DNA of 64,000 bases from a virus, in the IMG/VR virus record IMGVR_UViG_3300017917_003388, positions 1 through 64,000 of that record. One strand, written 5' to 3'. Each line of letters starts with the position of its first letter. Position 1 is the stretch's first letter. The notes under the pieces were generated by a model. The model worked only from the letters and a program-made list of their open reading frames with translations, made no database searches and was not told the DNA's origin. Shown here piece after piece: positions 28,676 to 52,898 of this stretch. A program made the position numbers and the translations under genes.

Positions 28676-28755
28676 TTTCAACAAAATTTATATTTTTATT
28701 CATATAATTTATTAATTATTAATTAATTAGAGAGTATTACGTCTAAGTATACGTT
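28676..28755 (+). repeat. direct repeat (other copy 52826-52898), attC right-arm-like, ending at GTT
   Basis: Identical apart from a 7-nt indel; identity stops right after TATACGTT. Confidence 0.9.
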
Positions 28756-29086
28756 AACAGTAATATTATTTTTGTTTTGATTTTAATTCATTATAATAAT
28801 ACCTTTCAGCTTCTTCTTTTGTAAATGGTGGTAGTTTTTCTGCTTCCTTTATACTATCATAATCTGATTTTTCAAAAAAGCAACCGATTATATAAATTGC
28901 TATAATTATTAATATTGCTTCCATAGTTATTTTTTTAATAAGGTAAAACAATCAATCCATTGAGCAATTTCCCAACCGCTTTCGCTGTATTCGGGACATC
29001 TAACTAAATACCAAGTTTCTTCCTTTGGTTCTTTTTCTGTTGTTTTTACAAGTTTCATTTTACTTTGATTTGTGAGAAAGACCAGC

Positions 29087-29180
29087 GGCTAACAGCGGTT
29101 TTGCAATAGCCGCCTGACAGTTCTTGGTTAATAATTAAGTTCTTCTTTAGCGGCCATCGCAAAGCCGCAAAACGTTAGGC
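29087..29180 (+). repeat. attC-like site
   Basis: GGCTAAC-A-GCGGTTTTGCAATAGCCGC...GCGGCCATCGCAAAGCCGC-AAAAC-GTTAGGC. Confidence 0.8.
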
Positions 29181-29384
29181 ACAATTGTTAGTGACCACCT
29201 TTATATTTAAGTCTGAAAGAATTGCTGAAACTTCTTCTTTCATATCTTCATTAACATTTGACCAACAAGTATCTCTTTGACCATCCCATTTAGCGTGAGA
29301 TAAAGCACCATTACTAAACGCTTTTTCAAGCAATTCTTTCAGTTCATCGGTTGAAAGAATAAAACCGTTATCAAATTTTGTCAT
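29175..29384 (-). CDS. cassette-borne hypothetical protein
   Basis: Stop TAA lies in the core site; frame stays open into the next attC. Confidence 0.7.
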   Translation of the reverse strand: MTKFDNGFILSTDELKELLEKAFSNGALSHAKWDGQRDTCWSNVNEDMKEEVSAILSDLNIKVVTNNCA

Positions 29385-29399
29385 AATTAAAACAACTGT

Positions 29400-29494
29400 G
29401 CCTAACAGCGTATATGCAAGATACGCCACGAAGCGGTTTGTAAATATTTAAGTTTATTCTTTGGCGACCATCGCAAAGCCGCAGAACGTTAGCA
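29400..29494 (+). repeat. attC-like site (hybrid arms)
   Basis: GCCTAAC...GCCGCAGAAC-GTTAGCA. Confidence 0.75.
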
Positions 29495-29500
29495 TCAATA

Positions 29501-29917
29501 CTACGGAAGTAGTTCGATTACTTTTATTTGGTTAGGGTAAAACGCAACAACATTTTCATCCATTACCACACCATCATAACCGTTTTGTATTAATTTATTT
29601 TTTAATTTTAAGTCAATGTAGTTATAAGAGTAATCATAACCTTCATCATCTTTAATAGTATCACCTACGGCATTTCTAAATTTACCATCATCAGTGTCAG
29701 ATAAATCATATGGATTTTTTAAATTAAACTTAATTTTAAAAACATTCTCGCCATAAGTATTTGCAAAATTATAGTCCTTTGTACCATAAAAAACAGTATC
29801 TTCATCAAACAAAATTTCATCGTTGTTTGTGCCGTGTAGATAAACATCATTTACCACCTTATTTTTATTAAAATATTCTCTGATTGTAGTTGTTATGAAT
29901 TTCTTCAAATCTTTCAT
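29501..29917 (-). CDS. ADP-ribosyltransferase-fold-like protein with N-terminal leader
   Basis: YLHGT, FYGT...FANTYG, NLKNPY, GYDGV, VAFYPNQIK. Confidence 0.6.
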   Translation of the reverse strand: MKDLKKFITTTIREYFNKNKVVNDVYLHGTNNDEILFDEDTVFYGTKDYNFANTYGENVFKIKFNLKNPYDLSDTDDGKFRNAVGDTIKDDEGYDYSYNYIDLKLKNKLIQNGYDGVVMDENVVAFYPNQIKVIELLP

Positions 29918-30746
29918 CTTTTCTTTTATTTTATTTTATTTTAATTTTAGTTTTTCAAATTAAGTTCTCTGTGGTTAAATTGTTAACAAACACAAATACT
30001 TTTTCGTTAGATTCAATATCTTTTATTACCACAGCGTAATGGAGTTCCATCACTATTAAGTATTAATATAGTTCCTCTTCTATGATCTAATGTTTTATAA
30101 ATAAATCCATTTTCGCAACTAATTGAATAATCCCAATGAGATCCAACTTCATATGGATCTCGTTTGCTATCACAATATTGAAGTAAAATCATTATTCCAA
30201 AAGTTAATAAACCAAATAATAATAAATTTTTCATATAAACATTTGTTCTAATTTCATTTGAGTAAATCTTTCCATAGTATGGAATATTTCTTGTCTATCT
30301 AATATTTTAGCTTGTGATATATCATCTGAAAATTGGGCGTATCCTTGTTTAAGACCTGTATAAACATATTCATCTTTATTAAGAATAATATATTTAGGTT
30401 CTTCTTTCTCCCAAGTTAATAATTTTTTTCTTTTGGGTTTTTTCATTATTTTACTCTCCAATTTTCTTCATAATCTGGATAAGTAGGCCATACATATTTT
30501 TCTATACTTACCCAAAATCTTTCATGCCATACTTCTTTTTTTACTCCTTCTATTATGGCTTTATCATCAGTTATACCTTGTTCTAAGTTTAAAATAGATA
30601 ATTGTAATATACCCAATTCTAAAGTTTGAGATAATTCATCGATATTTGTAGTTTCAGGGTTAAAATTATCAATGATCTGTTTTGCTTTACTCCAAAGTTT
30701 TGTTAATTGTCCTTTTTGCTTCTTCATACTCATAACTTATTTTAAT

Positions 30747-31052
30747 TTAATCAGTCAAACCTAATTGTTTTGCTCTTTGATATCCAATCCATTTCCCATT
30801 ATTGGGATTTAAATATTTTCTTTGTGTTAATGGAAGGGATTCTTGTTCATCTTCTAAAGTACTATACTTAATAGGATATTCGATATTTATACAAACTGGA
30901 CCCTTATTGAATTTTTTTAAATTGTAAGTCCAATTTATTATAACATTATCATCATAATGTATGGTCCTAGTAAAACTACCATCTTCATTATTTTCAGTTA
31001 ATGATGATTGGGGAGGGGATTTAGGAGGTCTCCCTCGTTTTTTTATAGACAT
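30747..31052 (-). CDS. AT-hook-containing protein
   Basis: KKRGRPPK. Confidence 0.6.
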   Translation of the reverse strand: MSIKKRGRPPKSPPQSSLTENNEDGSFTRTIHYDDNVIINWTYNLKKFNKGPVCINIEYPIKYSTLEDEQESLPLTQRKYLNPNNGKWIGYQRAKQLGLTD

Positions 31053-31152
31053 AACCTTTTATTTAATATTAATTATATAATATAAGATAAAAAAAGAAGT
31101 TTGATTCCCAAACTCCTTCTTAAAAATTTATTTTCCATTAAAAAATACAATA

Positions 31153-31533
31153 CTAATCTCCAGTATAACCAGCGGGATTAAATTTATGAGTACCAGGTAC
31201 TGCTGATCCTTTTTCTTTGTAATAATTTGCAGCTAAATCACTCATATCTGTTGGTTTTATATTAAATGGGTTTGGATCTTCTTTTTTAGCTGTTGAAAAT
31301 CCCATAGTCCAATTTATCATTTTCTTATATCTTTCAGCATAGGGCATAGTTGAAGCTAATTTTTCGGCATAAGTTTCAGGTTCACGATATGGATTTTTAG
31401 GTTGAGCACCATCTGGTTTACCAGGGAGATATGAATTATATCCTTCTTTCCATTCTTCTGAGTTTGGGTCTATATTTTCAGTAAGAGATGAAATTTCTTC
31501 TTTAATTATTTGTTGTATTTCTGATTTTTTCAT
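31153..31533 (-). CDS. hypothetical protein with N-terminal leader and Rmf-like motif
   Basis: MKKSEIQQIIKEE; EGY...NPY...WTMGF. Confidence 0.6.
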   Translation of the reverse strand: MKKSEIQQIIKEEISSLTENIDPNSEEWKEGYNSYLPGKPDGAQPKNPYREPETYAEKLASTMPYAERYKKMINWTMGFSTAKKEDPNPFNIKPTDMSDLAANYYKEKGSAVPGTHKFNPAGYTGD

Positions 31534-31561
31534 TACAAAATATTTTATTATCATAAATATA

Positions 31562-32158
31562 TTAGTTTTTCCATTTCCACTTAAATTTCCATGCTGTTTT
31601 TAACTTACCTTTACAGCAATCTCCAATACCATATGAGTTTCTATCTTTATTTAATGCTATATTTGCTTCACTTATTGAATTATATGTTGCCTTTAAATTT
31701 CCATCTAAATCATATTGTTCTACTGGTTTTTGTAATGTTGGATATTTATGTCCTTTCTTAGCATTAGAAATATTGCATTTTTGTTTTTCAGTATATTTGG
31801 AACCAGTTTTACCATGATGTATACCAACAGGATGGGGTTTATGTTTTTTACCTTTCCTTGATATACTCATTTTACTTTTAGATTCTTCAGAATAGTATGA
31901 AGGACCGCTTCCACCTTCTTTACGTATATTCATAATCTCGAATCCCCATTGTCTAAATTGTTCTATCCAATACGTTTCTAGTGGTTTCCAATCTTTTTTA
32001 TCTAAATTAGGGATTTCATCTATGTAGTCATATTGAATATTTTCTCCATATGTTTTTTTATGAGAAGATTTTCTTGAATTTTTAGTTTTACCTATATAAA
32101 CTTTATTGGGATCTCCGTAACAGTTAGTTACAAGATAGATTTTTGTAATATGTATCAT
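31562..32158 (-). CDS. GIY-YIG homing endonuclease with NUMOD motifs
   Basis: KIYLV...VYIGKT, ETYWIEQF, VEQYDLDG. Confidence 0.85.
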   Translation of the reverse strand: MIHITKIYLVTNCYGDPNKVYIGKTKNSRKSSHKKTYGENIQYDYIDEIPNLDKKDWKPLETYWIEQFRQWGFEIMNIRKEGGSGPSYYSEESKSKMSISRKGKKHKPHPVGIHHGKTGSKYTEKQKCNISNAKKGHKYPTLQKPVEQYDLDGNLKATYNSISEANIALNKDRNSYGIGDCCKGKLKTAWKFKWKWKN

Positions 32159-32214
32159 CGCAATATAAATTATTTGTCGATGATAAATATTGCAAAACAA
32201 CAAAGAGCTGCATT

Positions 32215-32730
32215 TTATGCAGCTTTCTTTGGTCTTCCCCGTCTTCCTCCGGATAACAAAGCACGTTTTGCTTTCTCAGCATCTCTAATTGCTTTCAATT
32301 CGGGGTCCATTGGTTTACGTCCTCTTTTACCACCAGTAGGTTTATATTCTGGTTTAACTTTTAGTTCACTTGGGTCTTTACGAGGTCGTCCACGTTGTTT
32401 TTTCTCACCAGTATGAATTTTCTCCTTAACAACACCCTCAGCTTTAGAAAAATATTTCATCATTCCCAATTCATATGGGTGTACCACCAATTGGTCCAAT
32501 TCATAATTATAAACACTACCTTCAGGACCATATACTTCAAACCCACCATTTGGGAATGTTTGTTTATCTCCTGGTTGATACATTGCTTTTAAAGTAAAAT
32601 TAAGTGATGGATCATCTATGTAATTTACAGGTAATACTCTACATCCTTTAACAAAGTGTGTAAATTTACTATCAACATCCACGAAATTTTTTCTTGGAGG
32701 GAATACATCTGTATTTTCGAATACATTCAT
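32215..32730 (-). CDS. multi-AT-hook DNA-binding protein
   Basis: RGRPRK, RGRKP, RRGRPKK. Confidence 0.75.
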   Translation of the reverse strand: MNVFENTDVFPPRKNFVDVDSKFTHFVKGCRVLPVNYIDDPSLNFTLKAMYQPGDKQTFPNGGFEVYGPEGSVYNYELDQLVVHPYELGMMKYFSKAEGVVKEKIHTGEKKQRGRPRKDPSELKVKPEYKPTGGKRGRKPMDPELKAIRDAEKAKRALLSGGRRGRPKKAA

Positions 32731-32792
32731 AACTTTTTATTTTTAATAAAGATAAAAAAAAAGTTTGGTAATCCAAACTTTTAATTAATTTT

Positions 32793-32933
32793 TTATTTAC
32801 CCTGCCCGCAATATAATTTCTTATAGTTTTTACTTGATTTTAAAACACTAACTTTTTTTTTACTATGCACACCAGGGCGTTTAACTCTTTTCTTTTTTAA
32901 AAATTTTGATGATGATTCTTTTTTCTTAGCCAT
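32793..32933 (-). CDS. small highly basic protein (46 aa)
   Basis: MAKKKESSSKFLKKKRVKRPGVHSKKK...CGQGK; ATATTTATA upstream. Confidence 0.65.
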   Translation of the reverse strand: MAKKKESSSKFLKKKRVKRPGVHSKKKVSVLKSSKNYKKLYCGQGK

Positions 32934-32974
32934 AATTATAATTATTTTTAATTATAAATATGGTATGTTGTTTA

Positions 32975-33319
32975 TTATTTATTTTTTGTTTTTTTGGAGG
33001 TTAAAGGTTGTTTAACTTCTGATAATTCAGATATTATTTTTTTTATTTCATCACATTTTTCATATAATTCTTTTTCTTCAAAAAAAGGTAAATTATGTTT
33101 AAGTGTATTTAAAAAATATGATTTATCTAAAGTAACTTCAAATATTTTATTTTCTTCAATACATACTATTGAAAATAAATGTATTTTTTTCTTTCTAGAT
33201 TTTAAATTACTTAATATAGAATTAACCACAGTATCTCTAATTTCAAAATCAGCGCGTTCTATCAATGCTTTAAATTCTTGAGTTGTTTCAACCTCAAATA
33301 TGCGTGGTTTAGTTTTCAT
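32975..33319 (-). CDS. hypothetical protein with UVR-like helix pair
   Basis: EEKELYEKCDEIK. Confidence 0.6.
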   Translation of the reverse strand: MKTKPRIFEVETTQEFKALIERADFEIRDTVVNSILSNLKSRKKKIHLFSIVCIEENKIFEVTLDKSYFLNTLKHNLPFFEEKELYEKCDEIKKIISELSEVKQPLTSKKTKNK

Positions 33320-33481
33320 TAAAAATATTTTAAGGATTTAAGTTTATTTAATTTTTTGTTTCTTAATTTTTCCATCTGTTCATGTTGTTTCAACATTTTA
33401 GATGCTAATTTTTCTAAATGTTTTGACTTTTGTGATTCATAATCATTGATTATACTATCATGAAGTTTATTTTTCATTTTA

Positions 33482-34123
33482 TTATAAATATGAAATAAAT
33501 TCAGAACCATCATCTTTTGGTGGCTCATATAGTCCCAACTTATTTAATTGTTCTATTTGATATTCATCTAATTGAAATTCTATCGCTTCACTAGTCCCAA
33601 ATGTAGGATTGTGTGTTTCTAGTTGATGTATATCCTTATTATTAAATATATCTCCCTGATATAAAAAGTAGCAATTATAGCATAAAAATCTAATATTACC
33701 TAGGTTATAATGATTTGGGTTATTATCTTTAAAATTTAATATTAATGGAATTTTATAATCGTTTACTCTTCTCTCATTAAACTTACAGATATCGCATTCT
33801 TCTTTTAAATATCCTTCTTTTACCATCCTTGCCTTTATTTCTTCAGGTTTAAAATGATTAGATGATATTCTACCTTCTATGACATCTTTAATATCCCATT
33901 GTGATGATTTGGGGGATTTAGTTAAAAATTTAGGAATACCTTTTCCACTTTGATTTTTATGTATATCAAATAAATTTCTGCCTCCTTCAAATTCCTGATA
34001 TCTTTTAGCCCATGTTTTATAATGTATGTAAGACACATTCAAATATCTTGCTGCTGCTTTATTTGACTTAGTCATACGCATAGCAAGAAGAATTTGATCT
34101 TTAGTTAGAGGTTTCGGTTTCAT
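33482..34123 (-). CDS. HTH plus degenerate HNH/Zn-binding protein
   Basis: AAARYLNVSY; CDIC...NIRFLCYNC. Confidence 0.65.
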   Translation of the reverse strand: MKPKPLTKDQILLAMRMTKSNKAAARYLNVSYIHYKTWAKRYQEFEGGRNLFDIHKNQSGKGIPKFLTKSPKSSQWDIKDVIEGRISSNHFKPEEIKARMVKEGYLKEECDICKFNERRVNDYKIPLILNFKDNNPNHYNLGNIRFLCYNCYFLYQGDIFNNKDIHQLETHNPTFGTSEAIEFQLDEYQIEQLNKLGLYEPPKDDGSEFISYL

Positions 34124-34429
34124 TTAGTCAAAATCATCTGGTAATTCTGGAATTGGAAGTTCAGGGTTTGAATCATCAGTGTCGGATATATGCTCGTCTT
34201 TTCTGTTGCCTTTAATTTTGAATTCCATTTCTTGAAGACGAATAAATTCGTCTCTTTCCATTATTATGGTTTCATTATATGTGTGATCTCCTTCTCCTTT
34301 TGTAACAGTAATTGCTGCTTTTTTACCAGTTGTTGAACATTTAACACATCTTTTTACATTAGGAAATATTTCTAAACGTTTAGGGTGAATAACCTCTCCA
34401 CATCCTAAACATAATACGTCTTTATTCAT
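34124..34429 (-). CDS. DksA/TraR-type C4 zinc-finger protein
   Basis: CLGCGEVIHPKRLEIFPNVKRCVKC. Confidence 0.8.
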   Translation of the reverse strand: MNKDVLCLGCGEVIHPKRLEIFPNVKRCVKCSTTGKKAAITVTKGEGDHTYNETIIMERDEFIRLQEMEFKIKGNRKDEHISDTDDSNPELPIPELPDDFD

Positions 34430-35046
34430 TTTTATTTTCTTCCTGTTCGTCTATTTCTTTGAAAAAATCCCATAATTCCTTAGCATTTTGTAAATAAATC
34501 TCTCTTTCAGTATCTACATATTGTACTAATAATGGGTATATTTCGTTATTTTCATTTACTCTACCAAAAATATACCAAAATATTATTTCTGTTTTCCATG
34601 TTCCATATTTGATTAAAAATGTATTTTCTATTATTCTATGATATGTAGATTCATATTCCAATAGATTAATTCCACATAATTCATATGTTTTTATAGAATT
34701 AGCCCATATTTCTTCAAATAATGAAATTGCTTCTATAAACAATTCTTCTTCAGATAATATTTTAGGTTGAGGAGTTTTTTCTTTTATTTGTAAATATTCT
34801 CCAAATTTACTCAGATCCAATTGCATATATTTTTAAAAAATTAATTGTTGACATGTTTTTTCTTTCACTGAAGTAATCTAAGGCATCTTCTTCAGATTGG
34901 GAATATATTCTATCTATTGCTTCTTTGTTTGGATCATTTTTAATATAGGAAAAATATTTTTTATAATTTTTAGATTCAAATGTATTCATAATTTTATTAT
35001 TTTTTAGTTTATTTAAAATAAAAAAAATTTTTTAAATTCCAAATTT

Positions 35047-36051
35047 TTATTTCCAAAAACTATAAATTCCTTTATCTAATTCATATTCAGACCATATATA
35101 TCTATCACGCATTGGTTGCTGTCGAGCCCAATCCCACATTTGTGTTAATCCATCTTTTAAAGATGTTTTATATTGATAACCTAATATATCAACTGATTTT
35201 TTCCAAGTAGGAATTGAATGTTTAACTTCATGTCTAGCTTCTTTAAAAACAATGTTCCCACCACCTATTACTTCTCTTAATGTATCACATGCTTCTAATA
35301 TTGATATTTCTTCAATTCCTCCAACATTTATGATTTCTTTAGAAGCTTGGGGCAACATTGCAGCATTCCAGAATGGTTCTAAATTATCATCTATGTAACT
35401 AAATGCTCTAGTCTGAGAACCATCTCCAAATATAGTCATAGGTTGATCATTCATATATTGATACATCCATATACCTAATACATTTCTATATTTATCCCAA
35501 ATGTTTTGTTTAATCCCATAAACATTGTGAGGACGAATAATACACCAATCTAAACCATGTTGTTCTCCTGCAATTTGAATATCCATTTCACATGCATATT
35601 TAGCTACTCCATATGGGTCAATAGGTTTAGGAATTTGATCTTCATCAAAAATTCCACCATATCCATGACCATATACTGCTAATGTAGAAGTAAAAATTAA
35701 ACGTTTAACATCATGTTTTATACATTCATTAACAATATTAGCTGTGGCAACTAAATTATTTTGATAATTGTAATTACGGATAAAAGGAGATAATCCTTCA
35801 GCAGCATATGCTGCAAAATGGAATACATAATCTGGATTATATTTATCAAATATCTGATTTAAAGTAATTTTATTAATTAAATTTGCTTCAACAAAATTAA
35901 CACTAGGATTAATGTTTTCAATATATCCCCCACTTAAATCATCAATACCTATAACTTTATATTCTGGTTTATTTTCGATAATCCAATCTGCTAATCTACT
36001 CCCTAATAATCCAGCTACCCCTGTTATTAAAATGGTTTTTTCTTTTTTCAT
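35047..36051 (-). CDS. NAD-dependent nucleotide-sugar epimerase/dehydratase
   Basis: ITGVAGLLG, YGVAK, RPHNVYG. Confidence 0.95.
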   Translation of the reverse strand: MKKEKTILITGVAGLLGSRLADWIIENKPEYKVIGIDDLSGGYIENINPSVNFVEANLINKITLNQIFDKYNPDYVFHFAAYAAEGLSPFIRNYNYQNNLVATANIVNECIKHDVKRLIFTSTLAVYGHGYGGIFDEDQIPKPIDPYGVAKYACEMDIQIAGEQHGLDWCIIRPHNVYGIKQNIWDKYRNVLGIWMYQYMNDQPMTIFGDGSQTRAFSYIDDNLEPFWNAAMLPQASKEIINVGGIEEISILEACDTLREVIGGGNIVFKEARHEVKHSIPTWKKSVDILGYQYKTSLKDGLTQMWDWARQQPMRDRYIWSEYELDKGIYSFWK

Positions 36052-36054
36052 AAA

Positions 36055-36852
36055 TTAATATTCTATTCCTTTAATAAAACTTCCTTTTGGTCTATGACTA
36101 TTATTTTTAAATAATTGTGGAGGTATCCCCCATTTATAATAAAATGTTTCAGCTGCTGGATGTTCGGTTGCTTTAAACATTTCACCTTCTTTACCATTCT
36201 TAGTTGCAGCACTTCCAAAATGATAAAAATGTAAATTATTCATTCTATAAAATTGTTTTCCATTTAAATCTAATTTAAGAAAAAAATCCCAATCACATAT
36301 AAATGGTGAATTATATAGTGTATCAAACCCACCTACAATCATGTAATCTTTTTTAGATATAACAAAAGGGAATATACCCCCATCACAAGTTAGTTGGTTA
36401 TTTCGTATAGTTTGTTCATATTCAATAAATTCATCATATCTAAATTCACTAGGTTGTTTACCTAAATTATTTACTGGAAAGTTGAATATACCAGGACCTG
36501 TGGGTTCAATTTGGTTGATTGTAAATATAAAATCTGGTTGATATTGTTCTAGAATTATTCTATCCCAATCTTTACATAGTACATTATCATCATTAATAAT
36601 AACAATACATTCATTATTTGCATTCATTACAGCAAGGTTTAATGCTGTTTGCATGCCTTTATTATTTACTAAATCCAATACAACAATATCATGAGCATAT
36701 TTCTTCAATATTTCAGCACTTTCCTCAAAAAAACCATCTACAGCTACAATAATTTCATTTTTATTTATTTGATTTTCTATAGCTGATTTAAGACATAAAT
36801 CTAAATATTCGGGATTGCGATAAGTGGGTATTATTAAACTTAATTTTTTCAT
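36055..36852 (-). CDS. glycosyltransferase family 2
   Basis: SLIIPTY, VAVDG, INDDN, GGFD, DWDF. Confidence 0.9.
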   Translation of the reverse strand: MKKLSLIIPTYRNPEYLDLCLKSAIENQINKNEIIVAVDGFFEESAEILKKYAHDIVVLDLVNNKGMQTALNLAVMNANNECIVIINDDNVLCKDWDRIILEQYQPDFIFTINQIEPTGPGIFNFPVNNLGKQPSEFRYDEFIEYEQTIRNNQLTCDGGIFPFVISKKDYMIVGGFDTLYNSPFICDWDFFLKLDLNGKQFYRMNNLHFYHFGSAATKNGKEGEMFKATEHPAAETFYYKWGIPPQLFKNNSHRPKGSFIKGIEY

Positions 36853-37544
36853 ATTTTAGACCAATCAGTTAAAGGTGATAACCAAGCTGTTTCTCCATGA
36901 GTTGAATATCCAGGTATTGGTGTTACTAGTCCACGTTGTTTTTCATTTCTTAAAGTTAAAAACATGTGGAAATCATTTGGATGTGTTCCTGATGTAAACT
37001 CTCTTAGAATTGCTTCGTCTTGTTTTAAAGTACTTACTTTGGCGGCAAATGTCATGGTTGTAGAGTTTGTTAGTTTCCAATGGCAAGAATCTGTTAACAT
37101 TAATCTTGTTACTTCTCCACCATCTTCTACAAATGGATTTGCTCCATTAATATATTTATCTGGATGATCATATAAAGATACATAATGGAATCCTAAACTA
37201 AAACCTTCTTCTAGTATTTTATCTGAGTTTGGTTTATGAAGATAATCATTTTCTAAAAAATAAACTATTTCATCATCTGGAAAAGTTAGAGCCATATCTA
37301 AGGCTAAATTAAATGTTCCTGCTCCATGACCTATAGAAACTTTTTGTATAGCATTTTTAGTAATATATTTGTTAATCATATCTAATGTAGGTTCACTACA
37401 ATTATCGGCTATAACATACCATATTGCTTTATCTAATTTCTCTACAGCATTTTTTAAACAATTTTCATTATTAATGTAATCTGGTTTTACTTTAGAATAT
37501 CCAGTGTCACTTATTCTATATATTATTCTTAATTTATTTTCCAT
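36849..37544 (-). CDS. putative GT-A fold glycosyltransferase
   Basis: YFLENDYLH motif and cluster context. Confidence 0.65.
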   Translation of the reverse strand: MENKLRIIYRISDTGYSKVKPDYINNENCLKNAVEKLDKAIWYVIADNCSEPTLDMINKYITKNAIQKVSIGHGAGTFNLALDMALTFPDDEIVYFLENDYLHKPNSDKILEEGFSLGFHYVSLYDHPDKYINGANPFVEDGGEVTRLMLTDSCHWKLTNSTTMTFAAKVSTLKQDEAILREFTSGTHPNDFHMFLTLRNEKQRGLVTPIPGYSTHGETAWLSPLTDWSKI

Positions 37545-38296: not shown

Positions 38297-38359
38297 TTTA
38301 TAATAAATATTATAAAAACTATAGAGAGACCACCATATCACTTATTCTATATATTATTC

Positions 38360-39034: not shown

Positions 39035-39035
39035 T

Positions 39036-39617
39036 TTATTTACTAGCTTTTATACAAAGTGAATCAAATGTACTCAGATTATATCCAAGTTCTACAAGAT
39101 ATTCAGTTATTTTTCTTAAATTTTCACCCCCATAGAATGGTCCATCAGAATGAGCTGCTTCAAATATTATATTTCTAAAATCATATTTTGAAAAATCAAT
39201 ACTAGCTATTATATGAACATCTAATCCTTCAGCATCTATGAATAAATAATCAACATATGTTAGATTATATTTATCCATTAATTGATTAATACTTAAACAC
39301 TGAACATCCATTGATAATACAGGATATTGTTCTAAAGAAGGACTATGGTATTTAGTATGATAATAATCAAATGAACTTACTTCATAATTACTATCTTTAA
39401 GATAATACAATTTAGTATTTTTAATAGTTTCATCATTAGATATAGCTATATTTTCTATAATTGTTTTACCAATGTTTTTATATTGGGATTTCAGATCATC
39501 AATAATAAAAGGAATTGGTTCTACTAATATTAATAATTCTAAATCATCTATATTTTCATTAACAAAATCATATACATGATCCTTACCATTATTAGCACCT
39601 ATTTGTATTATTTTCAT
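39036..39617 (-). CDS. FkbM-family methyltransferase
   Basis: IQIGANNG, VEP, IDAEGLD. Confidence 0.9.
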   Translation of the reverse strand: MKIIQIGANNGKDHVYDFVNENIDDLELLILVEPIPFIIDDLKSQYKNIGKTIIENIAISNDETIKNTKLYYLKDSNYEVSSFDYYHTKYHSPSLEQYPVLSMDVQCLSINQLMDKYNLTYVDYLFIDAEGLDVHIIASIDFSKYDFRNIIFEAAHSDGPFYGGENLRKITEYLVELGYNLSTFDSLCIKASK

Positions 39618-43666: not shown

Positions 43667-43672
43667 AATTTT

Positions 43673-44350
43673 TTAACTTATATTTATTTCTTTAACTTTT
43701 TCTATTGCTTGTGGTGGTATATTATTTAAGGTATAATATCCATGAATATAATTGGGGTCAGTATATAATTTCAGATAATCCCCAGGAACCATATATGTAT
43801 TTATTTTTAATATTGTCCAATTTTTTATTCCTGTTTTTTGGTAAAACATTTCTCCTAAACTTTCTATATCTTCTAAATCTTTAGATAAATAAACTCTATC
43901 AGGATGGTATGATGCTTTTGATCTTGACTTAGGTACTAATCCTATGCTTAAAATTTTATCTACATTTTGTGTTGGAGCAATATGATAGAGAACTTGAGGT
44001 ATTTTTTCAACTATTTCTTCATCAAATTTAGCTTCAAATCTTAATCTAATTCCACCTTCTTTAAAATATTTTTCATCCCATTTTCCTGTATATCCTTCAG
44101 TTTCCATAAATGAAGGAAACCATCCTAAAATATTAGCATCTTTGATAATATCATTTAAATTGTTAATATTTGTATGAAATGTTTTAACATAAAATGAATT
44201 TCTACTTTTTGTAAATATAAATTTAGATGAATATTTTTTCTCTAAGATATTAAGTGTTTTTCCAATATTAGTAGTTTTAATTAAACCTTCTTGAAGATTT
44301 AATTCATATTCTTCTTTATATATTTCTAATAGTATATTGAGTAATTTCAT
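43673..44350 (-). CDS. Tpt1/KptA-like ADP-ribosyltransferase-fold protein with leader
   Basis: LYHIA...ILSIGLVP...RVYLS...IPPQAI. Confidence 0.6.
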   Translation of the reverse strand: MKLLNILLEIYKEEYELNLQEGLIKTTNIGKTLNILEKKYSSKFIFTKSRNSFYVKTFHTNINNLNDIIKDANILGWFPSFMETEGYTGKWDEKYFKEGGIRLRFEAKFDEEIVEKIPQVLYHIAPTQNVDKILSIGLVPKSRSKASYHPDRVYLSKDLEDIESLGEMFYQKTGIKNWTILKINTYMVPGDYLKLYTDPNYIHGYYTLNNIPPQAIEKVKEINIS

Positions 44351-44351
44351 A

Positions 44352-45803
44352 TTAATAAACTAATTTATGATTTAATGTTTTTTTAAATACATGTTTAGTA
44401 TTAATAAGTTCAAACTTTTCACGGGGTACCCAAGTTTCGAATAAATCATCTAAGGTATTTATAATTTTTATTCCCATCTTCTCCCCAGTAAATCCAGCTT
44501 CATCTGATATAGCCCATTCTCTTCCTTTTAATCCTCTTTCAATACGTTCAGCTTTAGACATACTATATGCTTCTTTAATTCTAATAGATGCATCTTCAGG
44601 TGTACATCTATCATCCCAAATATAAGGTGTTATAGGTGAACCTTGAATTGAACGATTTGTTGGGTAAACAGGTAAAGCCCATTCTCCACATTCTTTAATA
44701 GTACCATTATGATTAGAAGGAAATTTATTATCAAACTCTACCCATTTTCCATCTTTAACAAAACGCATTTGATCTTGCATTCCTCCAGTTACATTTGCTA
44801 TAATCATTTTTCCAGCTAATAAAGCTTCAGTTAAAGATAATCCCCATCCTTCATTTGATGTTAATAAAATTTGAGTATCAGATATATTATATAAGTAATT
44901 CATATATTTAGGATCTAATACTTTATCTGAAAATATTATATTGTATTTATTACCTAATTCAAAACCAAAAAGAAATTCACATACTGCATTTAAATCTGTA
45001 CCATTATCATCTATAATTTGGGTATGTAATATAAAGGCACATTCTCTAGCTTTTTCTTCAGGTAATGAATCAATAAAATATTTATATGCTAAAAGAGTAT
45101 CAGGAATTTGTTTACGTCTAATGTTTCGTGAGTTGAAAAATAGAATAAAATCATATTCTTTTCCTTTAAGTATTGTATTCTTAAATTGGTTAAATTCTGC
45201 AGATTGTTTTTCATCTTCAGATAATGGTTTAAAAACATTATGATCTAATCCATGAGGAACATAAGTTATAATCTTAGAATTTTTATCAGGACCTAATACT
45301 AATTTATTTATGTTAACTGTTTGTTTAGAAATCCCCAATAATGCATCGCATGCTTCATAAAATGGTTTATTATACATAGGGGCAGGATAATTATCCCAAA
45401 TATTAAGATAAATTATAGGTATTTTACGACGAATTTCGTTTTCTATTTGGAATAACCACATAAAATATCTAGGATCAGTTATCAGAAATATAGCATCTGG
45501 TTTTTCAGTTTTTATTAAATGTCTTATTAGATTGGGGTCTCCATAACCATCTGTTGGATATAAGAATACAGACGAATCTGTTAATCCAGTTATTTCATTA
45601 GTATTTTGGGATAAATCTAATCGCTTTCCTTTTTCAGGATGATTAATAGCTCCAGAGATTTGTACCCAGTTAAAATGATGACATGTATTTATAACTATTT
45701 CTCTACCTACCGTTGCTACTCCGGAATGAACCCTAATATCATCTGATATTAAAAGTATTTTTTTACGTTGGGATTGGGGAAGGTATTTGAATTTTTCTTT
45801 CAT
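44352..45803 (-). CDS. glycosyltransferase family 4 (GT-B)
   Basis: SGVATV, RNIRRK, NEGWGLSLTEA, TGGMQDQ. Confidence 0.9.
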   Translation of the reverse strand: MKEKFKYLPQSQRKKILLISDDIRVHSGVATVGREIVINTCHHFNWVQISGAINHPEKGKRLDLSQNTNEITGLTDSSVFLYPTDGYGDPNLIRHLIKTEKPDAIFLITDPRYFMWLFQIENEIRRKIPIIYLNIWDNYPAPMYNKPFYEACDALLGISKQTVNINKLVLGPDKNSKIITYVPHGLDHNVFKPLSEDEKQSAEFNQFKNTILKGKEYDFILFFNSRNIRRKQIPDTLLAYKYFIDSLPEEKARECAFILHTQIIDDNGTDLNAVCEFLFGFELGNKYNIIFSDKVLDPKYMNYLYNISDTQILLTSNEGWGLSLTEALLAGKMIIANVTGGMQDQMRFVKDGKWVEFDNKFPSNHNGTIKECGEWALPVYPTNRSIQGSPITPYIWDDRCTPEDASIRIKEAYSMSKAERIERGLKGREWAISDEAGFTGEKMGIKIINTLDDLFETWVPREKFELINTKHVFKKTLNHKLVY

Positions 45804-45828
45804 AAACTTTTATTTTGTTATTTATTTT

Positions 45829-46020
45829 TTATAGATCTTTAATATCAGGGATATTATGATTGGTTATCAATTTTCTAAATTCAGAATCATTAAGATATAA
45901 ATCCATTGCTTTATTCACTAATTTATTTAGAGAAAATTTTCTTCGAACACATTCAATCTTAAAGTTATTAAACAATTCTTGATTTACTTTAACTGATGTT
46001 AATTGAGTTTTATCTTCCAT
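45829..46020 (-). CDS. ribbon-helix-helix DNA-binding protein
   Basis: LTSVKV...LF..FK...SLNKLVNKAMDLY. Confidence 0.7.
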   Translation of the reverse strand: MEDKTQLTSVKVNQELFNNFKIECVRRKFSLNKLVNKAMDLYLNDSEFRKLITNHNIPDIKDL

Positions 46021-46063
46021 ATTATTTATATAAATTTATTTATATATAAATATATTAAGATTT

Positions 46064-47038
46064 TTAATCTATTACAAATTTGAATTTAGATGTTTTTTTC
46101 TCTTTACCTTTATCACATAATTCAGGCATTTTATTAAACATACAATATTTACATGTTTTGGGATCAGGAGTAGGTTTATGTTCTATATTTTTATATGAAC
46201 CATCAATGTTGAATACATTTTCTATAAAATTCTCCAAATGTTTTCTTGCATTTTTTATCTTATTTTTTCCACTGATTGGAGAATATTCTTGAATTCTTTT
46301 AGAAAAAATAGATTCTTCCCATATTTTTCGTTTAAGTATAAAAAATTTAACATCAATTTTATCTTCAGATATACCAAATTGCTCGCTAAATATTGATTTA
46401 TATAATAACAATTGGTTTTGTTTATGAATATCTTTTTTATCTTTATCTGACCATCCTCTAGATGATGTTTTTATATCATATATAATAAAAGTATCAGTAG
46501 ATTCACAATATAATACTAGATCTATAAACCCACCAAATACTACATTTGGGAATTTAGGATTAGGTGATATAACTAATGGTATTTCTACACCTACTAAGTA
46601 ATAATCTTTTTTTATAAAATATTCTCTTCGTTTATCTTTGATAAATCTTAATATTTCTATACCATCATCAAAAAATTCAGACATTTCAGATGCATTACTA
46701 AAATGTTTAGATTTATTTTTTTCATATTGTTTATTATAATTATCACGAAATGAATTTTCAAAAAAGTTTTCAATATCAAATTCATCAGCTTGAACACTAT
46801 TTTCTTCATATAATATATGGAGAAAATGTTGTATAGTTTCATGTAATGCTGTTCCAAACACAGTATGTATGTTAGAGGTAAAGGCTTTATGACCTTCTTT
46901 ATATTGTAATGACCATTTTTTAGGACATGAAGCATACATAGACATTTGAGAGACAGATACGTTTTTTTGAAAACTATAATCTATCTCTCTATTTGGTATT
47001 GATTTAATTTTTTGAATTATTTCTGGGATCTGTCTCAT
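46064..47038 (-). CDS. PD-(D/E)XK RecB/Cas4-like exonuclease
   Basis: CPKKW, FGTALHE, GFIDLV, YDIKT, QL..Y, CKYC...C. Confidence 0.9.
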   Translation of the reverse strand: MRQIPEIIQKIKSIPNREIDYSFQKNVSVSQMSMYASCPKKWSLQYKEGHKAFTSNIHTVFGTALHETIQHFLHILYEENSVQADEFDIENFFENSFRDNYNKQYEKNKSKHFSNASEMSEFFDDGIEILRFIKDKRREYFIKKDYYLVGVEIPLVISPNPKFPNVVFGGFIDLVLYCESTDTFIIYDIKTSSRGWSDKDKKDIHKQNQLLLYKSIFSEQFGISEDKIDVKFFILKRKIWEESIFSKRIQEYSPISGKNKIKNARKHLENFIENVFNIDGSYKNIEHKPTPDPKTCKYCMFNKMPELCDKGKEKKTSKFKFVID

Positions 47039-47385
47039 TTATCGAGTAAATCAATTATTTTTTGTAAATATAATGATAAATCCATTGCTTCTTCTTGAGC
47101 ATGAATTAAATAATCCTTAATATTTAAATCTTCTCTATCTAGTGTTTTACCATATTTTTTTTCACCCATTTCTGCTCTTTTAATATATTTTTCTAAAACA
47201 GTTTGCACTATTGAATCGGGGGTGTAATCATTATATGTTATTTTAGGATATTGTTCTATTAATTTTAAAATCTCTTTTTCATTTTCTATAAATTGAAATG
47301 CTTTTATAGTTTCTTGATTGGAGATAGCCATTTCTTTTTGTTCCTGAATTAATTTTAGTTGAGATTTAAGTAATTCTAAACTCAT
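47035..47385 (-). CDS. possible all-alpha NTP pyrophosphatase-like protein
   Basis: RAEMGEKKYG...HAQEEAMDLSLY. Confidence 0.55.
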   Translation of the reverse strand: MSLELLKSQLKLIQEQKEMAISNQETIKAFQFIENEKEILKLIEQYPKITYNDYTPDSIVQTVLEKYIKRAEMGEKKYGKTLDREDLNIKDYLIHAQEEAMDLSLYLQKIIDLLDK

Positions 47386-47828
47386 TTTGATAATTTTTTA
47401 ATTTGATCTTTATCCAATCCCATAGAACTTAATATAGATTCAACCCAATTTTGATTAGTTAATTTAATATATTCTTCTGCTTCTTTTATAGAACATTCAA
47501 AATATTGAGCTATATATTGTGGTACTTCGGGTTTATATTTCTTATTTTTGGATTTAATATAAGGAGAATATGTGTTTTTAGATTGAGGTATTATAAAACA
47601 ATATAATTCATATAATTTTTTATTATCTTTTATATTCAATTTTTGGATATAATTCACTATATCTAAATATTTAGGATTCATACTTAATATCTTATGTATC
47701 ATAAAACCATTAAATATTTTATGTTCATCAGAATTAAATGAACTCCATGATTTTTTATAATCTATAATATTTTTTACCCAATCGAATATGGTAAATTGAT
47801 TTTTATATTTTGGAGTTATATTCTTCAT
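47382..47828 (-). CDS. clamp loader small subunit (gp62-like)
   Basis: IFDW, FMIHKILSM, YFECSIKEAEEY; context. Confidence 0.7.
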   Translation of the reverse strand: MKNITPKYKNQFTIFDWVKNIIDYKKSWSSFNSDEHKIFNGFMIHKILSMNPKYLDIVNYIQKLNIKDNKKLYELYCFIIPQSKNTYSPYIKSKNKKYKPEVPQYIAQYFECSIKEAEEYIKLTNQNWVESILSSMGLDKDQIKKLSK

Positions 47829-48080
47829 ATTCTTGACGTAATTCTTTGGGAAGTAAACTAGTTAATATTTTTCCTTCTTTATTTACAAATACTTGAATAG
47901 GAACAATAGCATCATCTGGAGTTCCTGTTAGGAATTTACTAATTTTTCTTAAAACTGTAGCTTCAAAAAATATTTGATTTCCATTATCATCAATAATTGG
48001 TGTAGATTGACTTATATCAATATTCATTTTTATTCCTTGTTGATTTGATTCCATAAAATTTTATTTTATTTAATTTTAAA

Positions 48081-48659
48081 TTAATTGTTTATTTCTGGTT
48101 TTTTATAATATTTCCATACTTCATCTAATTGTGAAATATCCTTAACCCACATTATCCAATCATCTGGGTTTATTTCTTCTTCAATTACATCTATATAAAA
48201 TGTTTTAGGGGTGAATGGAAATCCTTTTATTTCTAATGAAGAACTAATTCTATTTTTATCATTTATTGCATCTTCTCTACTTAAATATAAAGGACCAGTC
48301 CATGTAGTCCCATTAGGGCATACTTTAACTATTGCTGAATTATATGTTATAATATTATTATTTTTAAATAACCCAGATTCTCTTTTATTTTGATACATAT
48401 TTTCACCCCCCCAAAGCCCGCTAATATCTACCCATTCATCATCTTCTCCAGTAATAGGTTGTAGAGGTTTAAATAAGGCTAATTTTTCAAATATACTAAT
48501 AACAATATTTGCAGACATTCCTGAATGACCCTGGTTGGAAAATACATCTATTAATTCTAATACTGCTTTTCCCGTAGCTCCTCCATAAAAATCTCCAGTA
48601 TCATCTAATAATCCAGCCATTTTTAATTCTAGGGTTGCAAAATCTTTTAAATTACCCAT
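48081..48659 (-). CDS. conserved hypothetical protein
   Basis: QGHSGMSA, PITGEDDEW. Confidence 0.75.
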   Translation of the reverse strand: MGNLKDFATLELKMAGLLDDTGDFYGGATGKAVLELIDVFSNQGHSGMSANIVISIFEKLALFKPLQPITGEDDEWVDISGLWGGENMYQNKRESGLFKNNNIITYNSAIVKVCPNGTTWTGPLYLSREDAINDKNRISSSLEIKGFPFTPKTFYIDVIEEEINPDDWIMWVKDISQLDEVWKYYKKPEINN

Positions 48660-48665
48660 TTTTTT

Positions 48666-49586
48666 TTATTTTAATATTTCTAATATTTTATATATATATG
48701 CACAAAAATTTATTTCTTTATCTATAACAAAATTGGAATGATATAAGCCTTCTTCAATATTTATTATAATTAATCCTTCATTTCCCTTTCCATATTCTTC
48801 TATCCTATCATACAATGCTTTATATATATCTTCAAAATTACTTACATCTGAATCTGCTATTAATTGTCTTATATTATTAAATGATTTAGAATCAGGTTTA
48901 GCTAATATTTTTATAATAAGATCAATATACTCTTCAGAATTGTGGAAAGCACTATTTAATACTAATTTATCATTGACTATATATTTTTGACAATTATTTA
49001 TTATTTTTCTAAAATCAGGATAAAATTTATTTACTATTGTTGCTATATCTTCTATATTATATTTAATTTCTTCTATATCCAAGATATTTACAACATGTTC
49101 TGCTATTATTTTTTTAGATGGGGGTAACAAATCAAATTCTTGTAATCTACTTCTGAGGGGTTCTATTAATCTTTCAGGATAATTACCTGTTAATATGAAA
49201 CGAGTAGTTAAACTATATGTTTCAATCATATTTAATAATAATACTTGAGAAGCGGATAAAATATGTGTTGCTTCATCTAATATTACTATTTTAAGAGGTT
49301 TAAATGATCCAGCAGCTGCAAATGAACCTACTTTATCTCTCATTACATCAATTGATCGTTCATCAGTAGCATTTATATATAAATAATCACAGTCAATATT
49401 ATTTACTAATAATTTAGCTAATGTAGTTTTACCTGAACCTGGTTTACCAGCAAGTAAAATATGAGGAATATCTTGTTTATTAATAAATTCTTCAAATTTT
49501 TGTCTATATTCATCCCTACATATGAATCCCATCAATGTGTTTGGACGATATTTTTCAACTAAAATTGTATGTTCTTTTTTACTCAT
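48666..49586 (-). CDS. clamp loader ATPase (RFC/gp44-like)
   Basis: VEKYRP, GKPGSGKTT, ILDEA, PLRSR. Confidence 0.95.
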   Translation of the reverse strand: MSKKEHTILVEKYRPNTLMGFICRDEYRQKFEEFINKQDIPHILLAGKPGSGKTTLAKLLVNNIDCDYLYINATDERSIDVMRDKVGSFAAAGSFKPLKIVILDEATHILSASQVLLLNMIETYSLTTRFILTGNYPERLIEPLRSRLQEFDLLPPSKKIIAEHVVNILDIEEIKYNIEDIATIVNKFYPDFRKIINNCQKYIVNDKLVLNSAFHNSEEYIDLIIKILAKPDSKSFNNIRQLIADSDVSNFEDIYKALYDRIEEYGKGNEGLIIINIEEGLYHSNFVIDKEINFCAYIYKILEILK

Positions 49587-49774
49587 AATATTGTTTATTA
49601 ATATTTTTCAATTTTACAATTAGGATATTTGTTTTTAACAAATTTTTCAGCTAATCTATATGGTAAATCATAAACTTCTATAAAATCTATTTCACCACTA
49701 GGTTTAGTAATTTGAAATTCAAATACGTTGATGTAATCGATATTCCTCTTTTTTTTACTCATATATTTTTTATT

Positions 49775-51394
49775 TTAATACATTTGCATTTCAGGTTTTT
49801 TATCTTCATTGTTTTTTTCAACAATTGCTGATTCAGTTAATAATATTAAACCAGCTACAGATGCTGCATTTTCTATAGCATTACGTGTTACTTTTGCTGG
49901 ATCTATTATTCCTGCTTCTTTCATATTGACAAAAGTTTCAGTTCTTATATTGTATCCTACCCAATTATCAGGTGTGTTTGTTAATCCACTTACTAATCCG
50001 TAACATTCTCCTTCACTATATCCAGCATTTGTTAATATTTTCATAAATGGTGAAGCACATGCTTCATAAACTATTGATTTTCCTATATTAAAATCATCTG
50101 AGTTATCTTTTGATTTAGTAATAGCTTCACTAGAATATAATAATGCCATTCCTCCTCCTGGAACAATTCCTTCTTCTAATGCTGCTTTGGTTGCATGCAA
50201 TGCATCGTCCACACGATCTTTCTTCTCTTTAATTTCTAATTCTGAATTTCCCCCAACATGAACTATAGCTACACCTCCTATAAATTTAGCTAAACGTTCT
50301 TGTAATTTCTCTTTTTCATAAGGAACTACAGATTTATCAATTTGAGATTGTAATTCTAAAATTCTTGTTTCTATTTTATCTGAATTTCCTTTTCCATCAA
50401 TAATTGTAGTTTGATCTTTAGTAATTGTAACTAAACGAGATTTACCAAACCAATCCCATGAAAATTTGTCTAATTTCATCCCTTTTTCATTTGAAAATAC
50501 TTCCCCACCAGTCATTATGGCTATATCTTCAAGAATTAATTTACGTCGTTCCCCAAAATCTGGGGCTTTAACAGCTGCTACCTTTAATGTGCCTCTCATT
50601 TTATTAACAATAAGAGTTGACAATACTTCTCCATCAATATCTTCAGCAATAATCAATAATGGTTTTCCAGTTCCTGATACATGCTCCAATACTGGAAGTA
50701 AGTCTTTGACTTGGGTAAATTTACGATCTGCTATCAATATAAATGGATCTTCTAAAGTACAAGTCATATCATTATTGTTGGTTACAAAAAAGTGAGATTT
50801 ATATCCTCTATCAAATTGCATCCCTTCTACAGTTTCAAGATATGTTTCTCCAGTTTTAGATTCTTCAATAGTAATTACTCCTTCTCTACCTACTTTATCC
50901 ATAGCTGTAGATATTAATTTACCAATTTCTGGATCATTATTAGCTGAAATTGTAGCTATTTGTTCAATTTGGTTTTCAGATGATATATCTTCCACTATAT
51001 TTTCTCTCATATAGTTTACTACTTCTTTAACAGCTTCATCAATACCTCGTTTTATATCTACAGCATTTGAACCTTTATCAATAAATGAAATTCCTTTATT
51101 AATCATATTTTGTGCTAAAAGAGTTGAAGTTGTTGTACCGTCTCCAGCATTGTTAGCTGTTTTTATAGATGCTTGTTTTATCATTTGAGCTCCTAATTCT
51201 TCAAAAGGATCTTCTAAATCTGAAATTTGTTTTGCTACTGATACTCCATCTTTTGTGGATTTAATTTCTCCAAATTCAGAATATATAACATTTCTTCCGT
51301 TAGGACCCAGAGTTGATGTAACAGCATTTGCTACTTTATCTATACCTGATATTATTTTTTTTCTAACTGATGAACCAAATTCTACTATTTTCAT
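49775..51394 (-). CDS. groEL: chaperonin GroEL
   Basis: [31 protein letters not shown]. Confidence 0.98.
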
Positions 51395-51425
51395 AAATTT
51401 TATTTTTAATTTTGTTTAAATTTTA

Positions 51426-51710
51426 TTATTCTATAATTGATAATACAAGAGTTTCATTACATACCCAATATTCTTGATTATCTTCTTCTACTTTTACAGG
51501 ACCTATAGGTGGTAATATCACTTTTTGTCCTTCTTTTAAGGAAGTATTAATAAAAGTACCATTAATTGAAAAATGGCCAGGACCTACAGATACAATTGTT
51601 CCTCTTAACCCTACTTCTTTTCCAGAATCAGGAACTATTATTGAACCATATTGTTTCTCATTTTCCTCTTGGGGTTTTACTATTATATTATTATGTGTCG
51701 CTCGTAACAT
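51426..51710 (-). CDS. groES: co-chaperonin GroES
   Basis: GSIIVPD, GTIVSVGPG; adjacent to groEL. Confidence 0.92.
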   Translation of the reverse strand: MLRATHNNIIVKPQEENEKQYGSIIVPDSGKEVGLRGTIVSVGPGHFSINGTFINTSLKEGQKVILPPIGPVKVEEDNQEYWVCNETLVLSIIE

Positions 51711-51940
51711 ATGTTTAAGTTTATTAATTAGTTTTTTCTTCTATTAAATTATTTTCTTCTATTATTTGTGCATCGTCTATTTTATTTACAAAATAATATT
51801 TATGTTGTTTTTTTAACACTGTATCACAACCTAAATATTTTCTATATTCTTGTATTTCATCTTCATGTATTGTTTCTTCTTTAATAATTCTGTTAACAAT
51901 ATATAAGTTGTTTTTATAATTAATTATTATTTTATTCATT

Positions 51941-52717
51941 TCAAACATCTTTTTTAACAATATAATATGTGCTACTTATATTACCTACATTAAATGAAAG
52001 TTTTAATAATCCTTCTAAATTTATATCCATATATGCCGATTCTGCATCTTTATTTACATTTAATATTTCTTTAAATAAATCAGAATTAAATCCTAACTTA
52101 AAATCAGACATGGGATCAATAAATGATTCTGATAAATTAATTGTTGAAAGATTATCTTTTATAAAATAACTAACTTTATTAGAATATTCTATATCTCCAC
52201 CAAATATTAATTCCAAACTATATTCAGATGAAAGTTCAATATCTGAATTACATTTTATCATTACTGTAGAACTATCATCTAATGCTGATTTTGCTTTTAT
52301 AAGAGATTGAATTATTTCTTTGTTTAGAATTGTTTTCAAATTATACTCTTCAGGACCATTATATTTTCCTGCTTTAGGAATTGTGATAGTATCAGCTAAA
52401 GTATATGAAACATTAAATTGATCATCAAATATATTTAATTTACTATATATATTACCATGTTTGGTTAAATCAAGATATACATCATTATTCATAATTGATA
52501 TAAGCTTATTTAATTGAGAAGTATTAAATATACCTATATTTGAATCACACAGATTAAAATTATTATGAGAAATAATACCTACCATTTCCCTGTTGGGAGA
52601 AGTAATTTTAATATTCAAATTTTTATTTTCTATATTCCATTCAACTGATTCTATTAATCCATTTAAATAATATTTATTTATAAGAGACTGAAATTCTGGT
52701 TTTTTGATTAGAAACAT
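51941..52717 (-). CDS. DNA sliding clamp (gp45/PCNA-like)
   Basis: Size, FKEIL...GLLKLSF...STYY C-terminus, replisome context. Confidence 0.7.
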   Translation of the reverse strand: MFLIKKPEFQSLINKYYLNGLIESVEWNIENKNLNIKITSPNREMVGIISHNNFNLCDSNIGIFNTSQLNKLISIMNNDVYLDLTKHGNIYSKLNIFDDQFNVSYTLADTITIPKAGKYNGPEEYNLKTILNKEIIQSLIKAKSALDDSSTVMIKCNSDIELSSEYSLELIFGGDIEYSNKVSYFIKDNLSTINLSESFIDPMSDFKLGFNSDLFKEILNVNKDAESAYMDINLEGLLKLSFNVGNISSTYYIVKKDV

Positions 52718-52825
52718 ATGGTTTTTTAATTTTAATTTAAATATAAAATAAATAATTTTATAATCCCAATTATAGTAAAGAAGGAATATCTTGAAGATTA
52801 TTAGCTAATTTTACATAGATTTGTG

Positions 52826-52898
52826 TTTCAACAAAATTTATATTTTTATTCATATAATTTATTAATTAATTAGAGAGTATTACGTCTAAGTATACGTT
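52826..52898 (+). repeat. direct repeat copy of 28676-28755
   Basis: Ends at TATACGTT. Confidence 0.9.

Follow-up and report, generated by a model that had tools for sequence, protein, structure and literature searches.

Integrons are the closest described relatives of two small gene arrays that are found in the first 64,000 nt (hereafter the window) of a virus genome, IMG/VR record IMGVR_UViG_3300017917_003388, a complete genome of 174,694 bp with direct terminal repeats. In the class 1 integron (In2 of R100, with intI1 and attI1), attI is a simple site directly 5′ of the recombinase start, with the core CTAA-N6-G|TTA, and cassettes enter at G|TT. There, the attC sites are imperfect hairpins with RYYYAAC/GTTRRRY ends, and each cassette starts with bases complementary to its own inverse core. 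The phage arrays are alike in these respects. Each array of the window is bordered by one copy of a repeat, and these two copies are very probably the proximal ends of two decayed integron-like platforms, made of an attI-like CTAA-N6-G|TT site and a deleted recombinase gene of the Xer/IntI type, with the cassettes entering beside the repeat.

There are also differences from class 1. The recombinases of the phage family are short, with 263-289 amino acids (aa), and lack the IntI-specific insertion; the phage attC sites have a one-sided 4-nt bulge and no L-box extrahelical bases; and the cassette open reading frames (ORFs) are on the bottom strand, running towards attI and the recombinase gene. 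In addition, the element is part of a lytic phage genome, in which the recombinase gene is deleted. Among the features that make an integron, the hairpin ends of attC and the cassette signature are present, and so, by homology, is a putative simple attI site beside a recombinase gene with joins at G|TT. An IntI-specific domain and cassette ORFs that lie on the attC top strand and read away from attI were not found. The system is, therefore, integron-like and not a canonical integron.

In phages, CALINs (attC clusters without an integrase) are the only precedent found in the literature (Qi et al. 2023, PMC9892861); they occur in lytic phages, including a Polaribacter phage. With two hairpin sites each, the two clusters of the window are CALINs under the rule of at least two attC sites and no integron integrase nearby. 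Unlike a bare CALIN, however, both keep attI and fragments of a recombinase pseudogene. In the Shewanella phage M16-3, the same attI heads both an integron and a CALIN (Qi et al. 2023), a precedent for two arrays headed by one attI, as in the present phage. Short recombinases beside the arrays, recombinase remnants, or a systematic inversion of the cassette ORFs are not part of that report.

In the reverse (or "unusual") integron of Treponema denticola (PMC4909258), the array is placed after the 3′ end of intI and has its ORFs on the attC top strand. The recombinase and the cassette genes point the same way there, as they do here, and Bacteroidota contigs with the present attC family (L260) have that layout. 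In the phages, on the other hand, the recombinase gene starts downstream of the array (11 of 12 viral loci), and the bottom strand carries the ORFs. The layout cassettes-attI-recombinase with bottom-strand ORFs is matched neither by published CALINs nor by reverse integrons. Simple tyrosine recombinases (YRs) of the Xer/dif type (NF040815 XerA; the "integron-like" simple YR subgroup of Smyshlyaev et al. 2021, PMC8138268) are the best profile matches, with the same size, the same PF13495 and PF00589 domains, and apparently a similarly simple core site with a 6-nt spacer. But the phage recombinase genes adjoin hairpin-bounded arrays of gene cassettes and not a chromosome dimer-resolution site.

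The repeat and the remnants of a recombinase gene

In the window (about 27% GC, with nearly all genes on the minus strand), copy A of the repeat (28676-28755, 80 nt) and copy B (52826-52898, 73 nt) differ solely by a 7-nt indel in a TTAATTA run, as found both by alignment and by a repeat search (families D17 and D18). Of a 24-mer taken from the repeat, the window contains two copies (vs. 0 expected from shuffles), and the whole genome no more. On the plus strand, the identity stops at ...TATACGTT, and the copies continue with AACAG in one case and GTAGG in the other. Each copy borders a small array of attC-type hairpins on its transcription-downstream side, and GC-rich palindromes with YTAAC...GTTAG ends adjoin each. 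The attC covariance model (CM R1) has matches beside copy A (hairpins E2 and E1, Table 1) and beside copy B (E4), where the long-loop element E3 is also present. In all this, an earlier note, made from the sequence of the window, was accurate: it had described the near-identity, the divergence right after GTT, and the position of each copy at the border of an array. The opposite edge of the repeat is not sharp; weaker similarity runs on with indels and fades gradually, because remnants of a recombinase gene lie there.

These remnants were recognized through related phages, whose recombinase loci next to such arrays were found by tblastn with IntI1 of plasmid R100 (many loci). One relative (L079, identical with L350) has a 3.6-kb insert, recombinase included, in the same gap between the polymerase gene polB and the sliding-clamp gene. 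In tblastn against the present genome, residues 1-22 of the L079 recombinase (N-terminus MDKNINFVEKCKFYLTKKYNSQ) match 28703-28638 with 82% identity (E = 8e-6), where the mini-ORF of copy A reads MNKNINFVEKCKSFLTKKYNSK. Residues 247-261 match 52826-52782 with 87% identity, and residues 1-9 correspond to 52853-52827 in copy B. Therefore, copy A retains the first 22 codons of the gene, and copy B nine N-terminal codons fused in frame to the last 18. The last 18 codons retained in copy B contain the catalytic-tyrosine motif TQIY, and about 237 internal codons are lost in frame. The minus-strand ATG and the mini-ORFs starting with MNKNINFVE, which the earlier note had pointed out, do exist (28635-28703, 22 aa; 52770-52853, 27 aa). 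However, they are not separate ORFs, different in each copy, as it had been put, but remnants of one deleted gene.

The part of the repeat before the ATG is homologous to a stretch of 45-55 nt located immediately 5′ of intact recombinase genes in L350/L351, L352, L353, L355, and L146. In seven independent attI-recombinase loci, the homology starts exactly at TAAC|G (the sense AAC, i.e., GTT on the plus strand), and beyond it only generic flank is common. The earlier note had suggested mapping where identity breaks in homologous repeats of related phages; in the seven loci, all breaks are at the sense AAC. The plus-strand core of the repeat, CTAA-N6-G|TTA, has the geometry of attI1 of R100 (CTAA-AACAAA-G|TTA). 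Altogether, the reading of the repeat copies as a putative attI-like site followed, after an upstream region of about 45-50 nt, by the first codons of a deleted recombinase gene is supported. Of the two labels proposed before, "attI-like" is the fitting one, with the repeat homologous to the region upstream of intact recombinase genes. "AttC right half" has to be given up: the repeat forms no hairpin (only a 4-bp stem, z about -1 to -2), and CM R1 gives no match to it at E up to 1.

An exact match to a 21-mer of the repeat is absent from IMG/VR, and sequences similar to the repeat are absent from five complete related genomes. The 7.9-kb stretch around array 1 (26000-33900) has no blastn match in the phage collection. 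A match to AACGTTTTGC at about 72.2 kb lies inside a coding gene and is taken as a chance match. Likewise, the likeness of the repeat to the sequence after the GTTGTAGG unit in L097/L098 is too weak to count.

The best NCBIfam match of the relatives' recombinases is the XerA/integron-integrase model (NF040815 XerA). On TIGR02249, they reach 150-220 bits, under the cut-off of 265, in two stretches that skip profile positions ~179-238. Opposite residues 191-275 of IntI1, about 47 aa are missing.

Hairpin family, cassette boundary, and strand polarity

The pattern TAACGTTYTGC-N45-75-GCTGTTAG is found in IMG/VR (at least 120 contigs) and in genome contigs, mostly of Bacteroidota (at least 120), and arrays of up to 11 elements are detected with the covariance model. 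The stem of the family covaries (13 of 16 pairs), with 89% paired vs. 68% in shuffles, and the one-sided bulge opposes GTTTT and T. In the window, four elements carry the YTAAC...GTTAG ends, with CM R1 scores of 47.6-75.8 bits (75.8 and 61.4 bits for the two hairpins of array 1, 47.6 for E4); E3 has a 13/13 stem. In another phage-like contig (L104:2880-2950; also L106 and L108), an attC array starts beside a tRNA-like 3′ fragment (GGTTCGAGTCC). The cassette ORFs often have their start in the loop of the hairpin and leave it along the 3′ stem arm (L079:10056-10313; 52907-53134 in the window), and in L079 the 3′ stem arm of a hairpin codes for a lipoprotein signal peptide (MSNRKLNGFFAYVLLAVVLFSSC).

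A classical integron cassette can be recognized by its first bases, which are complementary to the inverse core of that cassette and not to that of its neighbor. Here, the bases beyond the core at the two ends of the inter-hairpin units are complementary at six or more of eight positions in 55% of 139 units, vs. 3% in the controls (across bodies or random pairs). In array 2, the ends complement each other at 8/8, 8/8, and 12/12 positions, and in array 1 the unit 29176-29409 does so at 13/14.

Where similar hairpin bodies occur in different phages, 140 of 379 pairs have the downstream flank in common and only 12 the upstream one. The cassette boundary is, therefore, the sense-strand AAC. Together with the start of homology at AAC in the seven loci, this linkage favors the crossover at the plus-strand G|TT proposed in the earlier note, which would be the point of strand exchange. 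The linkage of homologous units offers no informative pairs at the DNA level; at the protein level (few cases), the upstream body is conserved in five and the downstream body in one.

In phage arrays, the TAACGTTTT strand carries the ORFs in 119 of 123 cases, and in the 11 viral loci mentioned above the array lies upstream of the recombinase gene start and is co-oriented with it. In Bacteroidota genome contigs with the same attC family, the trend is the opposite: ORFs occur on the other strand 75 vs. 18 times in anchor-defined elements, and 124 vs. 42 times when counted with the in-house element finder. In L260, a clear bacterial example, the recombinase gene is followed by co-directional cassettes. 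Therefore, the TAACGTTTT strand is the canonical bottom strand, and it carries the phage cassette genes, so that the inversion relative to classical integrons, suspected before, is borne out.

The G.T wobbles also favor the TAACGTTTT strand (170 vs. 42). Since the in-house finder is biased, they were counted again on elements defined by anchor motifs only, and the preference persists in bacterial arrays (93 vs. 52), where the TAACGTTTT strand is not the mRNA strand. This argues for the folding of a DNA strand rather than of an RNA. Polarity was also sought from two class 1 rules, namely spacer lengths and the side with extra bases, against attC_aadA1 and primer sequences from Qi et al. These rules contradict each other and were replaced by the calibration on bacterial arrays.

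The arrays and their surroundings

Table 1. Coordinates of the two proposed platforms, their cassettes, and the adjoining backbone genes in the window
Feature	Coordinates	Strand	Content
Backbone gene	28326-28634	-	Downstream of platform 1
Copy A recombinase remnant	28635-28703	-	First 22 codons (MNKNINFVEKCKSFLTKKYNSK), then stop
Copy A attI-like site	28704-28755	-	Sense AAC (28755-28753) to just before recombinase ATG; plus core CTAA (28743-28746), N6, G|TTA (28753-28756)
Array 1	28756-30008	-	Three cassettes as read on plus (top) strand
Array 1 cassette 1			Two small ORFs and hairpin E2 (29085-29181)
Array 1 cassette 2			ORF 29175-29384 and hairpin E1 (29398-29495)
Array 1 cassette 3			ART-PolyVal ORF 29501-29917 and 18-nt linker between AAC and GTT
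Sliding-clamp-like backbone gene	51941-52717	-	Downstream of platform 2
Copy B recombinase gene, internal in-frame deletion	52770-52853	-	9 N-terminal codons fused to last 18 (MNKNINFVE|TQIYVKLANNLQDIPSLL)
Copy B attI-like site	52854-52898	-	Plus core CTAA (52886-52889), N6, G|TTG (52896-52899); same as copy A save 7-nt indel
Array 2	52899-53720	-	Three cassettes
Array 2 cassette 1			ORF 52907-53134 and long-loop hairpin E3 (53018-53187)
Array 2 cassette 2			ORF 53191-53394 and hairpin E4 (53434-53519)
Array 2 cassette 3			ORF 53534-53647 and 24-nt linker
Family B DNA polymerase (polB)	53851-56436	-	Backbone gene upstream of platform 2; Pfam DNA_pol_B

Both array blocks are insertions relative to other relatives. 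In relatives, the backbone gene downstream of platform 1 adjoins the homologue of 30231-30446 or of 30446-30733 with nothing between, and the block of array 1 is missing between homologous flanking genes in two relatives (G004 and G001). A search with polB gives 79 related phage loci, and in about 50 of them the clamp gene follows polB within 0-53 nt, vs. 1.1 kb here. No relatives came from searches with the clamp gene and with a 102-aa flanking gene. Along phage transcription, intact relatives have the order cassettes, attI, recombinase, and clamp gene. A homologue of the clamp gene stands directly 3′ of an intact recombinase gene in L350/L351, L353/L354, and L146, which makes platform 2 the decayed orthologue of one that is conserved in the polB-clamp gap. 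Platform 1 is a second copy.

In relatives (L003-L081), the polB-clamp gap is an insertion hotspot, with genes for GIY-YIG homing endonucleases (L017, L054, L079), unrelated small genes, or an integron-like platform. In the window, a mini-ORF (53716-53850, minus strand) directly follows the polB stop. It is broken by an A10 run and, with a 1-nt slip, reads as a peptide of ~45 aa; either gene decay or a slippage site may account for this. In array 1, the cassette farthest from attI holds the ADP-ribosyltransferase gene (Pfam match ART-PolyVal; 29501-29917, minus strand), and a distant homologue is found upstream of the intact recombinase in L352.

An intergenic motif of ~54 nt (minus strand TTAGGATTTCAAAATCTTAAATTTTATATTTACAA) is present in nine copies (578-631, 2199-2252, 3777-3830, 5843-5896, 6545-6598, 8144-8197, 13527-13580, 19037-19090, and 52718-52771). 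It also precedes the clamp gene in the closest relatives and is, thus, probably a phage promoter. Elsewhere in the window, a 191-aa ORF (21221-21796, minus strand) of ~50% GC, vs. 27% in the genome, is probably foreign and contains a weak match to the attC model (E = 0.22). Fifteen tandem copies of a 42-nt unit (23373-24268) lie inside the ORF 22994-24427, and genes for GroEL-like and GroES-like chaperonins (Cpn60_TCP1, Cpn10) are present at 49775-51394 and 51426-51710 on the minus strand.

Other explanations and meaning

Several observations weigh against the integron-like reading. The recombinases of the relatives do without the IntI-specific insertion, so that integron-type single-strand chemistry would be attributed to them by analogy. 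A PF00589 search of the whole genome is empty, no intact recombinase gene is present, and there is no sign of activity in this phage. Two units of array 1 have poorly matching ends, and the oldest cassette of each array ends in a linker of 18-24 nt with no hairpin. Nor does this reading account for the rise of a second platform. Further, the upstream body next to the unit GTTGTAGG..CCTACAAC differs between L097/L098 and L101, 24 homologues of a 75-aa protein break at V39 (the sense GTT), and the sense GTT is also the breakpoint in some other cassette comparisons. Either the sense-GTT end recombines as well, or it marks where the cassettes were first made.

The breaks at the sense GTT, as in the 75-aa protein, are also what would be expected if the repeat were the attC that belongs to the last cassette and the array had the classical orientation. 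The ORF-sense strand would then be the top strand, crossover would be at the sense G|TT, and the arrays would merely have their last site in common. On the sense strand, the repeat does begin with AACGT and finish with TGTTGAAA, like the hairpin elements, and IntI1 did recombine an AT-rich phage attC with weak pairing (P12002L_attC2). But the repeat has neither a hairpin nor a CM R1 match, the recombinase gene starts in its 3′ part, and both the body-flank linkage and the bacterial calibration set the boundary at the sense AAC. This reading, the least probable of all, is already refuted in large part by the remnant matches and the seven-locus attI alignment. The same alignment, with a break at AAC each time, and the homology to attI and the 5′ recombinase region speak against a duplicated regulatory region (promoter or leader) that has no role in recombination and whose GTT edge is the end of two unrelated insertions. 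Such a region, AT-rich, intergenic, upstream of backbone genes, and with a TATAAAT-like motif inside, would suit a phage that has other repeated promoter-like motifs (D2 family). Nevertheless, the repeat is missing at the same positions in the ~50 relatives and from the five complete genomes, and we consider this explanation very improbable. The repeat may well carry the recombinase promoter too, which is compatible with an attI-like site.

In T4-type phages, mobile promoter/stem-loop cassettes are known, in which an early promoter and a stem-loop flank shuffled ORFs, and homologous exchange has been proposed for them. The arrays and repeats could similarly have been built by homologous recombination between conserved intergenic modules, with no site-specific recombinase acting at GTT/AAC. 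T4-like phages recombine very actively, the hairpin bodies and 35-nt leaders are conserved beside different ORFs, and breakpoints occur at both ends of some units. However, homologous exchange does not predict the complementary variable triplets at unit ends (the 55% vs. 3% above), and it has to face the recombinase gene beside the arrays in nearly all viral loci having one and the exact attI break in seven loci. It is very improbable as the origin of these arrays.

With decayed integron-like platforms as the preferred reading, the following mechanism can be proposed. The coding strand (5′-YTAAC GTTTT stem-loop-stem T GTTAG-3′), which is the canonical bottom strand, would fold into an attC hairpin, and the recombinase would pair this hairpin with attI. 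Strand exchange would take place at AA|C on the bottom strand (G|TT on the plus strand), and new cassettes would enter beside the repeat. The retained cassette genes are on the bottom strand, the reverse of bacterial integrons, because attI is 5′ of the recombinase gene and the phage is transcribed one way. The arrays of this phage, which has no intact recombinase, are probably for that reason frozen relics, and they could move only with a recombinase supplied in trans.

An odd repeat thus becomes an anatomical landmark: in a T4-like lytic phage, it probably marks where attI lies in two integron-like platforms whose recombinase genes have decayed to two different extents. A complete integron would not be called here by standard integron finders, because a canonical integrase is required. 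The polarity is settled for a large attC family that is abundant in Bacteroidota and their phages, with the phage cassette genes on the strand opposite to the bacterial ones. More tentatively, and with somewhat less than even confidence, lytic phages of Bacteroidota might have their own integron-like gene shuffling, with a short Xer-like recombinase devoid of the domain thought essential for hairpin recombination and with attC folded from the coding strand, the loop often holding the start codon of the cassette. Even dead platforms might then stay docking sites that can be loaded by the recombinase of a co-infecting phage. If the short recombinases do recombine these hairpins, the integron mechanism would not need the IntI-specific domain, and phages would have a dedicated route to acquire and reshuffle small accessory genes, such as the ADP-ribosyltransferase cassette.

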